A DNA stretch of 64,000 nucleotides from Alphaproteobacteria bacterium (GTDB taxonomy: Bacteria > Pseudomonadota > Alphaproteobacteria > GCA-2731375): NCBI GenBank assembly GCA_040223615.1, contig JAVKFY010000011.1, positions 125,169 to 189,168 on the forward strand, in the 5' to 3' direction. The notes below the pieces were generated by a model. The model was given only the letters and a program-made list of their open reading frames with translations, had not been told where the DNA came from and did no database searches. Position 1 is the stretch's first letter, and every line of letters begins with the position of its first letter. Below, piece by piece: positions 52,543 through 61,106 of this stretch. A program made the translations under genes and the position numbers.

Positions 52543-52617
52543 GCGGGCGTAGTTCAGTGGTAGAACGTCAGCTTCCCAAGCTGAATGTCGTCGGTTCGAT
52601 CCCGATCGCCCGCTCCA
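52543..52617 (+). tRNA. tRNA-Gly (anticodon CCC)
   Basis: Cloverleaf folded by hand: acceptor GCGGGCG/CGCCCGC, anticodon loop TTCCCAA, T-arm GGTTCGATCC, CCA encoded. Confidence 0.85.
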
Positions 52618-57652: not shown

Positions 57653-59812
57653 CTATTCGGCGGCCCGCGCCGGCACTTCGATCAGTTCGCGAAGTGCGTT
57701 TTCGACCAGGCGATGACCGGCCCGCTGGTCCAGCGACAGTATCGACTCCGGGTGAAACTGCACCGCGGCCAGCGGCGCGGAGCGGTGTCGCACCGCCATA
57801 ACCAGCTGGCGCTCATTGCGTGCGGTGACATGTAGCTCCGCCGGCACCTTGGCCTCGACGGCGTAGAGTGAATGGTAGGCGCCGACCTGAGCCGGGTTCG
57901 GCAGTCCCTCGAACAGGCCGGAGCCGTCATGTGCCAGAGTCCAGCGCTTGCCGTGGCGCGGCTCCGGCAGGATGCCAAGCTCGCCGCCGAACGCCTCGAC
58001 CATCGCCTGCAGGCCGAGGCAGACGCCGAATTGCGGCACGCCACGGTCCGTCAGCGCGCGGATCAGCTCCGGCGCGCCGAAGTCTGACGGTCGGCCCGGC
58101 CCCGGCGAATGCACCACCAGCGCCGGCCGGTCGCGCAGCAGGCGGTCGACCGCGGTGCCGGCGCGGAAAGTGGTCACCTCGGCGCCGGTCTGGCGGAAAT
58201 AGTCGGCCAGCGTGTGAACGAAGCTGTCCTCGTTGTCGACCATCACCACGCGCACGCCGGCGAAAGGGCGCTCCGGTTCCGGCTCGGCGGCGCGGACGCT
58301 GCCACCCTCCATGGCGCGGAAGAACGACGTCGCCTTGGTACGGGTCTCCTGCTCCTCCTCCTCCGGCACCGAGTCGAAGACCAGCGTGGCGCCGGCGCGG
58401 TAGTGGGCGCGGCCGTCGCGCAGGTGCACGGTGCGGATGGTGATGCCGGTGTTCACGTTGCCGTTCAGCGACAGGACGCCGACAGCGCCGCCGTACCACT
58501 GCCTGGCGGTCGCCTCCATGTCCTCGATCAGGCGCACGGCCATGCGCTTGGGCGCGCCGGTGAGCGTCACCGCCCACATGTGGCTGAGAAAGGCATCGAT
58601 GCCGGTGAAGCCCTCGCGCAACCGGCCCTCGACATGATCAACGGTATGGATCAGGCCGGCGTAGCGCTCGATGTTGCGCCGGGCCAGCAACTTGACCGTA
58701 CCGGGCCGGCAGATGCGCGCCTTGTCGTTGCGGTCGACGTCGGTGCACATGGTGAGCTCGACCTCGTCCTTCTCGGAGTTGAACAGGGCCTTCAGACGGT
58801 CGGCATCCTCCATCGGGTTGGCGCCGCGACGCACGGTGCCGCAGATCGGCGCGGATTCGACCCGGTCGCCGTCGACGCGTACGAACATCTCCGGCGAGGC
58901 GCCGACAAGCTGTTCGTCGCCGAGCTGGAACAGGAATTCGTAAGGCGACGGGTTGATCCGCCGCATCGAGCGGAACAGTGCCGACGGGGCGCCGCGAAAC
59001 GGTGTCGAGAAGGTCCGGCTCAGCACCACCTCGAAGATGTCGCCGACGCGCATGTGTTCCTTCGCCTTGGCCACGTTGGCCTGGTATTCGGCGTCGGTGA
59101 GGTCGGAAACGATGCCGCCCTCCTCGACCGGCCGCTCCTGGCCGAAGGGCGCTTCCGGCCGGGTCGCCATCACCCCCTCGGTGGTGACGGTGCCGAGCTG
59201 GAAAGTGAAGTGGTGGCAGGTCGCGGTCTCCTTGTGCCGATCGACCACGTAGACCCGGTCGGGCAGGAACAACTTCAGGATCGGCCGCTCGGGCTCGCGC
59301 GCCTGGCTCAACCGCATCGGCTCGAAGGTGAAGATCAGGTCGTAGCCGAAGGTGCCGAACAGCCCCAGGAAGGGATCGGGGTAGCCTTCGAACTCGGCCA
59401 GCAGGCGGCGGATCGGGCTCAGCACGGAGGGCTGGCGGCTGCGGTCCTCTTCCGCGAACACCACCTCGGCGCGGGCGATGCGCAGCTTCAGGACGGTGTC
59501 GTCCTGGTGTTCCACGGTGGTCTCCGGCCCGGCGACCAGGATCGGCGTGAGCAGCTTCAGCAGCGGCCGGCCGACCTCGTTCAGCGCCGTCACGGTCAGG
59601 GTCTCGGCGGTGCCCTCGAAGCCGAGCGGCGGCGAGGCGAAGCCCATGTCGAAGCGCGAATACTTGTCCGGATCCTCCACGCCGGAGGACAGGTAGGCGC
59701 CGGGCTCGCGGTCGAGCCGGTCGATCAGGTTGTCGATACCCTGCTCATAGGGCAGGTCGATGATCTCGCGGCCGACGCGCAGGCCGCTGGGGGCAATGAA
59801 TGTCTCGGTCAT
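57653..59812 (-). CDS. trpE: anthranilate synthase, fused component I / glutamine amidotransferase, TrpE(G)
   Basis: 719 aa; chorismate-binding domain plus C-terminal class I GATase with catalytic Cys (GVCLG) and His (VQFHPES). Confidence 0.93.
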   Translation of the reverse strand: MTETFIAPSGLRVGREIIDLPYEQGIDNLIDRLDREPGAYLSSGVEDPDKYSRFDMGFASPPLGFEGTAETLTVTALNEVGRPLLKLLTPILVAGPETTVEHQDDTVLKLRIARAEVVFAEEDRSRQPSVLSPIRRLLAEFEGYPDPFLGLFGTFGYDLIFTFEPMRLSQAREPERPILKLFLPDRVYVVDRHKETATCHHFTFQLGTVTTEGVMATRPEAPFGQERPVEEGGIVSDLTDAEYQANVAKAKEHMRVGDIFEVVLSRTFSTPFRGAPSALFRSMRRINPSPYEFLFQLGDEQLVGASPEMFVRVDGDRVESAPICGTVRRGANPMEDADRLKALFNSEKDEVELTMCTDVDRNDKARICRPGTVKLLARRNIERYAGLIHTVDHVEGRLREGFTGIDAFLSHMWAVTLTGAPKRMAVRLIEDMEATARQWYGGAVGVLSLNGNVNTGITIRTVHLRDGRAHYRAGATLVFDSVPEEEEQETRTKATSFFRAMEGGSVRAAEPEPERPFAGVRVVMVDNEDSFVHTLADYFRQTGAEVTTFRAGTAVDRLLRDRPALVVHSPGPGRPSDFGAPELIRALTDRGVPQFGVCLGLQAMVEAFGGELGILPEPRHGKRWTLAHDGSGLFEGLPNPAQVGAYHSLYAVEAKVPAELHVTARNERQLVMAVRHRSAPLAAVQFHPESILSLDQRAGHRLVENALRELIEVPARAAE

Positions 59813-59995
59813 GACGGTTCTCTGGACGGAAGCGATCCGGCGCGGGCCGGACGTCGATAGGGGCAGTTGGCTGATAGCGCGCCTTGGCGGGCGTCGCGCG
59901 GACCCTTCAGATGAGCGTCACCAAGGACAACGGACGGACCGCGGCTCGGCGAGGCCGGCGATAGCGGGGCGGATCCATCCTGGGGTACTCATGGG
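59813..59995 (-). promoter_or_regulatory. trpE(G) leader region with candidate 24-codon leader peptide (MSTPGWIRPAIAGLAEPRSVRCPW, ATG near 59992) and downstream GC hairpins
   Basis: Own translation of minus strand; two Trp codons, one immediately before the stop; coordinates approximate to within 2 nt. Confidence 0.3.
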
Positions 59996-60024
59996 CCGCG
60001 ACGCTACACAACTCGCCCGGCTCT

Positions 60025-60334
60025 GTCCATCACGCGCTGTCTGTCGGCCGGCACCGGCGCCTCGGTGCGCGGCACATCGGAAGCGCTGCACGCACGCAAC
60101 CCGAAGATCCACTGCGTCGCCGTGGAGCCGGCGGAATCGGCGGTGCTGTCAGTCAGCGACGGCGGCGAGCACCGGATCGAAGGCATCGGCGCCGATTTCG
60201 TGGTGCCGCTGTGGCGGGCCGACGCCGTCGACGGGACCGAAACCGTCGCCACCGAGGCGGCGATGGTCACGCTGATGGTCGACAGCGGGATGAAGTACCT
60301 GTCGACCGCGCTCTACGGCCGCGCCGGCGGCTAG
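60025..60334 (+). pseudogene. 3' remnant of a cysteine synthase (CysK/CysM family) gene lacking its N-terminal ~180 codons
   Basis: Frame reads ...SAGTGASVRGTSEALHARNPKIHCVAVEPAESAVLS...HRIEGIGADFVVP...MKYLSTALYG, matching the C-terminal third of CysK (GTGGT loop, VAVEPxxSPVLS, IQGIGAGF, ERYLSTALF); no room upstream for the PLP-lysine half. Confidence 0.55.
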
Positions 60335-60894
60335 CGGTTCGCGCCCGGCACCCAGAGCACGTCGGTGGCGCCATCGTCGTTCAGGTGGCGGCTCAGCACG
60401 AACAAATGGTCGGACAGGCGGTTGACATATTTCAGTGCCGCCTCGTTGACCGGCTCGGCGGCGGCCAGGGCCACCATCTCGCGCTCGGCGCGGCGGGCTA
60501 CGGTGCGGGCCTGATGCAGGTGCGCGGCGGCGGCCGAGCCGCCCGGCAGCACGAAGGAGTTGAGCGGCGCCAGCTTCTCGTTGAGCGCGTCGATCTCGGC
60601 CTCCAGCCGGTCGACCTGCGCCGGCGCGACGCGAAGGCCGCCGGCCTTGCGCCCCTCGCCCTGCGGCGTGCACAGGTCGGCACCGAGGTCGAACAGGTCG
60701 TTCTGGATCCGCGCCAGCATCGCGTCGGCGTCGCCCTCGGTGTGCAGGCGGGCCAGGCCGATGGCGGCGTTGGTCTCGTCGACGGTGCCGAACGCCGCGA
60801 CGCGCAATGCGGTCTTGGATACTCGGCTGCCGTCGCCCAGGCTGGTCTCGCCAGCGTCCCCGCCTCGGGTATAGATGCGCGTCAGGCGAACCAT
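60331..60894 (-). CDS. cob(I)yrinic acid a,c-diamide / cob(I)alamin adenosyltransferase, PduO type
   Basis: IYTRGGDAGETSL N-terminal motif of PduO-type ATR. Confidence 0.88.
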   Translation of the reverse strand: MVRLTRIYTRGGDAGETSLGDGSRVSKTALRVAAFGTVDETNAAIGLARLHTEGDADAMLARIQNDLFDLGADLCTPQGEGRKAGGLRVAPAQVDRLEAEIDALNEKLAPLNSFVLPGGSAAAAHLHQARTVARRAEREMVALAAAEPVNEAALKYVNRLSDHLFVLSRHLNDDGATDVLWVPGANR

Positions 60895-60908
60895 CTCAGC
60901 TCACCTGC

Positions 60909-61106
60909 CTACAGCACGAACAGGAACAGCAGGATCACGCCGACGGCGGCGAACTGCAGCAGCACGCGCAACTGCATGAGCTTGTTGGAGCGCCGGTGTT
61001 TCTCCACGCTATCGCCGTCGCGCGCCATGGTGACGACGCCGAACAGCAACACGCCGACAATCGCCACCAGCAGCACGACCATCACGATCGGCAGGGCGGC
61101 GCTCAT
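60909..61106 (-). CDS. twin-transmembrane-helix small protein (65 aa)
   Basis: Two hydrophobic helices separated by MARDGDSVEKHRRSNKLMQLR. Confidence 0.65.
   Translation of the reverse strand: MSAALPIVMVVLLVAIVGVLLFGVVTMARDGDSVEKHRRSNKLMQLRVLLQFAAVGVILLFLFVL

Follow-up and report, generated by a model that had tools for sequence, protein, structure and literature searches.

The upstream region of trpE(G) and its leader reading frame

The 64-kb stretch of alphaproteobacterial DNA analyzed here, referred to as the window, encodes on its minus strand a fused anthranilate synthase of 719 amino acids (aa), TrpE(G), and the subject of this report is the region in front of its gene, which spans positions 57653 to 59812. 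The protein matches the Pfam domains Chorismate_bind (1e-72), GATase (2e-42), and Anth_synt_I_N (1.5e-8), and its homologues carry the name anthranilate synthase. Upstream and on the same strand lies a trpL-like leader open reading frame (ORF) of 24 codons plus UGA (59918 to 59992), with its ATG at 59992 to 59990, its TGA at 59920 to 59918, and the predicted peptide MSTPGWIRPAIAGLAEPRSVRCPW; 105 nucleotides (nt) separate the stop codon from the trpE(G) ATG. Leader nucleotides are counted below from the A of the leader ATG, so that the window coordinate of nt n is 59993 minus n. A previous reading of positions 59813 to 59995, made from the letters alone and referred to here as the sequence-only reading, had tentatively proposed that this minus-strand ORF of 24 aa, with Trp as its final sense codon, is a Trp leader peptide gene followed by an attenuator. 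The ORF was recovered at the same coordinates, and the functional unit was found to reach past that interval, upstream as far as a promoter at 60029.

A scan of one genome per species returned a single close relative of the locus, L001, from a Rhodospirillales metagenome-assembled genome (92% TrpE(G) identity), with all remaining matches at 63% identity or less, and a scan of metagenome contigs produced no new clade members (top match, 63% identity). A search of the protein database yielded only P0001 (92%) and P0002 (82%), the latter corresponding to locus L161, a third lineage with 82 to 83% TrpE(G) identity. Loci L162 and L163 are near-copies of L001. Covariation within this clade therefore rests on three sequences.

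The putative promoter consists of a -35 box, TGGACA (60024 to 60029, minus strand), and a -10 box, TAGCGT (60001 to 60006, minus strand), separated by 17 nt, with the -10 box located 8 nt ahead of the leader ATG. The -35 hexamer is the same in L001 and L161, while the -10 box reads TAGCGT in L001 and TACCGT in L161, so that in all three lineages of the clade a TGGACA-N17-TA(G/C)CGT arrangement ends 7 to 8 nt before the leader ATG. More distant relatives have TTGAC, TGGAC, or TTTAC as a -35 element at equal spacing; the TAGCGT hexamer is also present in most of them, and (G)CTAGCGT recurs 7 to 10 nt ahead of the leader ATG in many. From the position of the promoter, it can be predicted that the mRNA is probably leaderless or nearly so, as in Sinorhizobium. 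It is of note that a consensus scan called no sigma-70 promoter in the leader region, the conserved TGGACA/TAGCGT pair included.

The leader ORF is unlikely to have arisen by chance. Among 2,000 dinucleotide-shuffled versions of the 218 nt preceding trpE(G), an ATG-initiated ORF of 10 to 40 codons with at least two Trp codons appeared in 1.25% of cases, an ORF with a terminal Trp in 0.7%, and an ORF with a terminal Trp-UGA at a distance of 90 to 160 nt from the gene in 0.1%. One could still suppose that the ORF is an accident of GC-rich intergenic DNA without any leader function, as long open frames are common in such DNA and as this one shares its frame both with a longer GTG-initiated ORF and with trpE(G). 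However, the shuffle rates, the retention of the frame in independent lineages, and the family-wide pattern described below make this explanation extremely improbable, and we regard it as effectively refuted. The longer in-frame GTG ORF (59918 to 60112, 64 aa) was considered as a coding sequence in its own right and rejected because the similarity between the window and L001 ends at the -35 box. Readthrough of the UGA, which would yield an N-terminally extended TrpE(G), was also considered. The leader ORF and trpE(G) share a frame with no other stop codon between them in the window, L001, L161, and the more distant locus L164. In L167, L081, and many other loci the two are out of frame, and the shared frame was therefore dismissed as a coincidence.

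Conservation of the terminal Trp codon

Homologous ORFs of 24 codons are found in the same place in L001, L162, and L163 (MSPSGRIRIAIAGAAAPRSVRFLW) and in L161 (MSASGQDRPAIAGFAVPRSVRYLW). The start, the stop, the length, the AIAG and PRSVR residues, and the terminal Trp-UGA are kept in the window, L001, and L161, and synonymous changes are seen at kept residues (AGT/AGC, GCT/GCC, and CGG/CGA). These shared features, the promoter abutting the ATG, and the approximately 100 related loci with a Trp-ending ORF in the equivalent place that are described below bear out the proposal of a Trp leader peptide. Among the substitutions in leader codons 2 to 16, counted from the three-lineage alignment, no third-position bias is apparent. 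The three leaders are equally long and could be compared pairwise without gaps. Identity was 0.67 to 0.75 at the 4-fold degenerate sites of trpE(G), 0.83 to 0.90 over the final 30 nt of the leader ORF, 0.76 to 0.88 over the 25 nt after it, and 0.87 to 0.96 over the 20 to 23 nt up to and including the trpE(G) ATG, and it fell to 0.25 to 0.33 in the spacer between the two downstream hairpins (leader nt 117 to 140), which cannot be aligned. Judged from these alignments, such patchy conservation is not what neutral decay would give. A conserved block, UGACGCUCAnCUnnnGGGnCCGCGCGnC (59893 to 59920, minus strand; 76 to 88% pairwise identity), starts at the stop codon and reaches into the 5' arm of the first of these hairpins, and the translation initiation region of trpE(G), CCGUCCAGAGAACCGUCAUG (59810 to 59829, minus strand), is identical at 20 of 20 nt in the window, L001, and L161.

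The sequence-only reading had pointed to two Trp codons in the leader. Both are present, but only the last is conserved. This terminal UGG (Trp24; 59921 to 59923, minus strand), the last sense codon before the UGA at 59918 to 59920, is kept in the relatives and is the proposed sensor. Trp6 (TGG; 59975 to 59977, minus strand) is replaced by CGG (Arg) in L001 and by CAG (Gln) in L161 and probably has no regulatory role; the U of this codon forms a U-G wobble variant of a C-G pair in a helix within the ORF, P1, which is described below. Because relatives have Arg or Gln at this position, Trp6 was rejected as a sensor, even though its location in the 5' arm of P1 would suit the geometry of the Escherichia coli trp leader.

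To place the window leader in a wider context, 168 loci were searched upstream of trpE(G) for ORFs in which TGG directly precedes the stop codon, four more loci were searched separately, and a census was taken over all trpE(G) loci with enough upstream sequence. About 100 loci have a short ORF whose last six codons include Trp and which, where measured, ends approximately 93 to 160 nt upstream of the gene. A single terminal Trp was found in 57 loci, with UGA as the next codon in 55 of the 57; examples of peptides ending in this way are HPPKFIAFLW, PSVIFLW, FRW, and ALRW. A lone Trp located a few codons ahead of the stop (as in FLWRSR) was seen in 9 loci, two to four Trp residues (RWWW, RLWW, SVRWFWW, or WWRA before the stop) were seen in 34, and no such Trp was seen in 63, mostly from Acidobacteriota. 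Based on these sequences, a single terminal Trp is the majority state of the Trp-ending leader family and not a product of local decay. Six loci have a single Trp codon that is followed by three more codons and TAA, with peptides ending in TTFLWRSR (five loci) or FVNFLWRRG; in these, FLW is kept and the Trp is not terminal.

The nearest leaders outside the clade, at approximately 65% TrpE(G) identity, are those of L164 (MQTCGQITHPVIFLW) and L167 (MLTGGHHTRSVIFLW). They have in common with the window the TAGCGT -10 box, a block reading UGGUGACGCUCnGCUGAC (CGCUCnGCUGAC), and a hairpin reading GCGCGCCGCCC..GCGCGC, which in L164 is followed by the tail CUUCCAUUCUUC. In an alignment of 42 relatives outside the clade, UGGUGA is invariant save for one UAA stop (L040), and the G at the second position after the stop codon is invariant. 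The window, with UGG UGA CGC located 105 nt upstream of the gene, fits this UGG-UGA-N-G-C rule of the family (93 to 160 nt). It departs from a second family feature, namely, Phe or Tyr followed by Leu or Arg before the terminal Trp (UUY CUN/CGA UGG), which is present in about 90% of members; the window has UGU CCU (Cys-Pro) here, and its closest relatives have UUU CUC and UAU CUC. When a profile of the 42 relatives was run against both strands of the 64 kb, the top match fell on the Trp-stop block, at 59889 to 59924 on the minus strand; this match is weak (8.9 bits; E = 0.13), and rescaling of its E value to the approximately 300 nt upstream of trpE(G), which is our own scaling, gives approximately 3e-4.

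Members of the family with low GC content have clear terminators, made up of a hairpin and a U-run, approximately 15 to 20 nt past the stop codon, such as GCGGCGG..CGCCGC followed by GUUUUCUCGUUU in L015 and a hairpin ending in CCGCCGC followed by UUUUUUUCAAUU in L013. In members with more than 65% GC, the 12 nt after the hairpin mostly contain 1 to 4 U. A U-poor tail in the window is thus typical of its GC class and no private defect.

A subgroup of 21 distinct sequences ends in HPPKF(I/V)(A/S)FLW, and the last ten codons of these ORFs show a variation of 8.6 bits at third positions versus 2.8 and 2.3 bits at the other two. It follows that the ORFs of this subgroup are translated and that the peptide is under selection. 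The decapeptide is found in L003, L005 to L007, L010 to L018, L029, L033, L044, L047, and L083 and, further, in L085, L087, L088, L168, L169, and L171, approximately 125 to 155 nt upstream of trpE(G). For the leader peptide of an attenuator, selection at the amino acid level is unusual. The HPPKF motif is absent from the window clade. In another locus, L166, two leader-like ORFs stand in tandem before one trpE(G) (approximately positions 1168 to 1407); the peptide of the first ends in RSAIFLW, 255 nt upstream of the gene, that of the second is MSVRRLPAGSSRCIRRGGRW, ending 93 nt upstream, and each ORF is followed by UGGUGACGC. On sequence grounds, this arrangement may represent a duplicated attenuator.

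In light of these comparisons, we consider it likely, with a probability of roughly 70%, that the promoter-leader region of trpE(G) acts as a ribosome-dependent, Trp-sensing leader of the alphaproteobacterial trpL type. This reading draws on the conservation of the frame and of the Trp-UGA, on the architecture shared with terminator-bearing relatives, and on the precedent of trpL in Sinorhizobium meliloti. With a single conserved regulatory Trp codon directly before the stop, the window leader would represent a variant of the known trpL mechanism, and the continuum of three, two, and one Trp codons before the stop among relatives suggests the same logic with fewer codons.

Leader RNA structure and the possible output step

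Within the ORF, RNAalifold places helix P1 (59932 to 59980, minus strand), in which nt 13 to 24 pair with nt 51 to 61 and a small CGGC/GCCG hairpin is enclosed. Over the three clade members, the helix has 11 pairs, one of which is changed on both sides (C-G to U-A), and its energy is -24 to -27 kcal/mol in each of them. Both GC-rich hairpins that the sequence-only reading had noted downstream of the ORF exist. The first, T1 (59877 to 59899, minus strand; GCGCGAC..GGCGCGC, nt 94 to 100 with nt 110 to 116; approximately -11.5 kcal/mol), is the candidate terminator stem, and a GCGCGCC..GCGCGC stem with varying loops is common to L001, L161, L164, and L167. The second, H2 (59835 to 59852, minus strand; (G)UCCGGC-CCGC-GCCGGA(U), nt 141 to 158; approximately -12.2 kcal/mol), is followed by AUCGCUUCCGUCC; a GUCCGG..CCGGAC hairpin with a variable loop and a U-poor tail (1 to 4 U) is found in all three clade members. 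H2 and its pyrimidine tract had been singled out as the terminator, but it is the GCGCG hairpin, T1, that matches the terminator position in relatives, and the scarcity of U after H2 also speaks against that choice.

The spacer between T1 and H2 (59853 to 59876, minus strand) is rich in C and poor in G (10 C and 3 G of 24 nt). Its composition is kept in the clade (8 to 10 C and 2 to 4 G of 24 nt in the three members), whereas its sequence is not, and its C-minus-G excess falls within the top 1% of all windows in the 64 kb. A spacer of this composition could be a pyrimidine tail that has degenerated or a short, rut-like patch for the loading of Rho. A further complementarity is present in all three clade members between the 5'-terminal AUGAG(U/C) (nt 1 to 6, 59992 to 59987) and GCUCA(U/G) (nt 77 to 82, 59916 to 59911); if the mRNA is leaderless, such pairing could allow the leader only one round of translation.

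If the leader senses Trp as we suggest, transcription would begin a few nucleotides past TAGCGT, and the 24-codon ORF would be read from a leaderless or nearly leaderless 5' end, with the final UGG before the UGA as its only conserved regulatory codon. When charged tRNA-Trp is ample, the ribosome would complete the ORF and depart, P1 and T1 (approximately 20 nt past the stop) would fold, and most transcripts would stop, or remain untranslated, ahead of trpE(G). When charged tRNA-Trp is scarce, the ribosome would pause on the last codon and cover the conserved stop-codon block (approximately nt 55 to 85), and RNA polymerase would proceed into trpE(G). The sequences show the ORF and its conservation, the promoter, the hairpins, and the place of the leader within a large family of Trp-ending leaders. 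Where transcription starts, how Trp is sensed, and in particular how the output is produced are inferred, the last because no U-tract, no excess folding, and no clear antiterminator are seen. The output could be intrinsic termination at T1 despite its U-poor tail or Rho-dependent termination via the C-rich spacer. Of the possible outputs, we rank termination at T1, intrinsic or Rho assisted, first, translational occlusion second, and a stop-codon or nascent-peptide mechanism third.

Several observations weigh against a Trp-sensing attenuator at this locus. The two Trp codons of the window are not adjacent, so that its leader ORF does not have the consecutive Trp codons that identify an S. meliloti-type attenuator, and its terminal Trp is preceded by Cys-Pro instead of the Phe/Tyr-Leu/Arg of nearly all relatives. 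The clade provides three distinct sequences with one compensatory pair. In the window, T1 contains a mismatch (A, leader nt 99) that is not found in relatives, and its tail, UAUCAGCCAACU, has 3 U in 12 nt. A consensus terminator scan for a hairpin plus a T-run returned 0 sites, and a U-stretch follows neither T1 nor H2. The 211-nt region folds no better than shuffled sequences (z = +0.44), and no relevant Rfam match, to Trp_leader or any other family, was obtained at E values up to 10 in positions 59000 to 61000 or at the gathering threshold in the whole window. The sensor codon is located after P1 and approximately 20 nt before T1; a ribosome stalled there stays short of T1, and the 1:2/2:3/3:4 geometry of E. 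coli is therefore not applicable. In folding with a ribosome footprint masked over either the Trp codon or the stop codon, T1 was present both times and no switch was seen. In the same type of folding for the window clade, L164, and L167, either T1 was present in all states or long-range pairs replaced it whatever the state, and for 14 members of the HPPKF group the terminator probabilities were inconsistent, partly because the stem register differs between members. Inspection shows an alternative partner for nt 51 to 61 (the 3' arm of P1), namely, nt 85 to 95, which can also pair with the 3' arm of H2; the alternative pairing B:C overlaps T1 by 2 nt only.

Two of the checks on an attenuator that the sequence-only reading had put forward gave different outcomes. 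Alignment with relatives upheld the frame, the last Trp codon, and a T1-type hairpin, while Trp6 was lost and the evidence for alternative hairpins came to the one compensatory pair. Folding of a terminator and an antiterminator revealed neither a switch between footprint-masked states nor excess stability. What stands of the proposed attenuator is an architecture homologous to that of relatives with terminators; the terminator/antiterminator switch was not found, and we infer attenuation from homology.

The same observations could be taken to mean that the region is an evolutionary relic, that is, a descendant of a tandem-Trp attenuator that no longer senses Trp and serves only as a promoter and 5' untranslated region, with the ORF kept by inertia or by some other nucleotide constraint. 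This would account for the one remaining Trp codon and the unusual Cys-Pro ahead of it in the window, for the T1 mismatch and the U-poor tail, for the absence of excess folding energy and of a switch in the folding models, and for substitutions in codons 2 to 16 of the clade that lack a third-position bias. However, three lineages with a divergence of 25 to 33% at neutral sites, and with spacers that cannot be aligned, have all retained the start, frame, and length of the ORF and its Trp-UGA. A single terminal Trp is, moreover, the majority state of the family (57 loci) and co-occurs with clear terminators in low-GC members, and the third-position variation in the HPPKF subgroup indicates that ORFs of this kind are translated and selected. 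We therefore regard a relic as an unlikely explanation.

A different account of the output is offered by translational attenuation, in which the 3' end of trpL (Leu-Trp-stop plus 15 nt) would hide the Shine-Dalgarno (SD) sequence and start of trpE(G) and a ribosome stalled at the UGG would free translation. Such a mechanism does not require a U-tract. RNAalifold pairs GUGACG (nt 72 to 77) with CGUCAU at the trpE(G) start and CUGA(C/A)GG (nt 83 to 89) with CCGUCCAG (nt 166 to 173), and the (U)CUCUGG of L001, L161, and L164 is an exact complement of CCAGAG(A) in the SD region. In 23 of 50 family members, the stretch of the leader that pairs best with the initiation region is located no more than approximately 18 nt from the Trp codon, and 7 of 48 members beat 95% of shuffles. 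Yet the duplex of the window, L001, and L161 is no better than those of shuffled segments (z = -0.2 to -0.5; 28 to 38% are as good), the paired positions are all invariant and hence provide no covariation, the anti-SD stretch of the window (CCUUGG) has a mismatch and a wobble, and the family-wide mean z is just -0.6. In our judgment, occlusion of the trpE(G) start is rather unlikely to be the way in which the window leader works. Elsewhere in the family, in L081, L002, L033, L088, L104, L170, and L171, the Phe-Leu-Trp codons UUCCUCUGG are a nearly perfect complement of the SD region CCAGAGGAA, and these duplexes, at -20 to -32 kcal/mol, beat at least 97% of shuffles.

Known leaders and the neighborhood of the locus

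A trpL attenuator upstream of trpE(G) in S. meliloti was reportedly described by Bae and Crawford in 1990. The window is like this system in that a fused trpE(G) is transcribed alone, a short co-oriented ORF lies directly upstream, a putative promoter abuts its ATG, Trp codons are at or near the C-terminal end, and a hairpin follows the ORF. S. meliloti trpE(G) has a leaderless trpL attenuator of 110 nt with the stem-loops SL1, SL2 (antiterminator), and SL3 (terminator) (Melior et al. 2019, PMC6614838), a size that compares with approximately 120 nt to the end of T1 in the window. The S. meliloti terminator has a TTTT stretch (PMC6614838), whereas the window has none. The known peTrpL peptides all contain WW or WWW, and consecutive Trp codons are a hallmark of every characterized trpL (PMC7298713); where S. 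meliloti has three consecutive Trp codons and two more codons, the window has one conserved Trp as its last codon and then UGA. The two leaders have no detectable similarity in sequence, an Rfam family is lacking, and the SL1/SL2/SL3 switch could not be mapped onto the window leader.

Closer counterparts are the single-terminal-Trp leaders of other Rhodospirillales-like alphaproteobacteria (with endings such as HPPKF(I/V)(A/S)FLW, SVIFLW, and FRW), with which the window shares the position, the strand, the TAGCGT -10 box, the UGG-UGA followed by N-G-C, and a GC hairpin 15 to 20 nt past the stop. The window differs from them in the length of its ORF (24 codons versus 13 to 15 in L164, L167, and L081), in the Cys-Pro before the Trp, in the absence of HPPKF, and in a U-poor tail unlike that of the low-GC members.

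The E. coli trpL leader is carried on a leadered mRNA and has two tandem Trp codons and a U-rich terminator, with the sensor codons in segment 1 and the stop codon between segments 1 and 2. Both systems would make the fate of the trp transcript depend on the translation of a short ORF that contains Trp codons, and P1, like the E. coli 1:2 helix, could act as a pause hairpin and limit re-initiation. The sensor of E. coli is nevertheless in segment 1, while that of the window follows P1.

TnaC of the E. coli tna operon senses free Trp via the conserved residues Trp12, Asp16, and Pro24 and induces a catabolic operon. The window leader is similar in that sensing would take place at the end of a 24-codon, UGA-ended leader ORF and in that a downstream C-rich region could load Rho. 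The decision might also be made at the stop codon in a mechanism distinct from classical attenuation, with the nascent F-L-W peptide and the UGA in the A site modulating release by RF2, either in a TnaC-like manner or through competition between RF2 and tRNA-Trp, and the stalled or released ribosome controlling the access of Rho to the C-rich spacer. The near-invariance of the UGA in the 42 aligned relatives and in the single-terminal-Trp loci, the invariant G two positions on, the amino-acid-level selection on the C-terminal decapeptide in one subgroup, the location of the sensor at the extreme end of the ORF as in tnaC, the exceptional composition of the spacer, and the missing U-tract would all fit such a mechanism. 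On the other hand, the continuum from three Trp codons to one favors the same codon-hunger logic with a differing number of codons, and a hairpin formed by UGGUGA (UCGCC/GGUGA or CGUCAUC/GGUGACG) can also explain why this hexamer is conserved. In addition, the window clade has no conserved decapeptide, the C-rich patch measures merely 25 to 40 nt or so, none of the residues or spacings of the TnaC motif (Trp12-x3-Asp16-x7-Pro24-stop) is found in the window peptide, and the required polarity, with high Trp leading to termination, is opposite to that of tna. We thus consider a stop-codon decision in the window leader quite improbable.

A broader proposal, which we hold to be doubtful, is that the single-terminal-Trp leaders constitute a mechanistically distinct class of trp control in which the decision falls at the UGG-UGA junction and of which the window leader would be a divergent member. 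In place of classical attenuation with tandem codons and three hairpins, a nascent-peptide- or RF2-dependent dwell at the last codon or the stop would then be converted into an output by Rho or by masking of the trpE(G) start. Leaders with a single terminal Trp are the commonest type among the trpE(G) relatives sampled, and a literature search, whose scope did not include older comparative attenuator papers, found no description of them.

Considered alone, the window has a modest yield: the promoter of trpE(G), its leader ORF, and its regulatory 5' region can be annotated with good support. The textbook signature of trp attenuation is a run of Trp codons together with a U-tailed terminator, and these leaders differ from it: in a large, mostly uncultured alphaproteobacterial group, the trpE(G) leader usually has one Trp before the UGA, and high-GC members are without a U-tract. 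Should these leaders indeed regulate, one hungry codon at the end of an ORF can be enough for sensing, and most such leaders will be missed by annotation rules that demand tandem codons or canonical terminators. The conserved C-terminal peptide of one subgroup may also have a role of its own, as peTrpL in Sinorhizobium is reported to have.

Similarity between the window and L001 starts exactly at the -35 box (at approximately 60030 in the window and 2790 in L001), and the genes upstream of this point differ. By this comparison, trpL and trpE(G) seem to travel together with their promoter as one cassette. In L001, the upstream sequence is occupied by an unrelated ORF of 917 aa on the same strand, read by eye as a GGDEF/EAL-type signaling protein. 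In the window, a truncated remnant of a pyridoxal phosphate-dependent, cysteine synthase-like gene (Pfam PALP) is found on the plus strand at 60041 to 60331. It covers only profile positions 163 to 249 of 295, scores below the gathering threshold, and has an apparent internal deletion near the C terminus; at its broken 5' end it borders directly on the trpL -35 box, and it is convergent with a Cob_adeno_trans (adenosyltransferase) gene at 60894 to 60334 on the minus strand. Farther away, a tRNA gene at 52543 to 52614 on the plus strand is the sole gathering-level Rfam match in the window.

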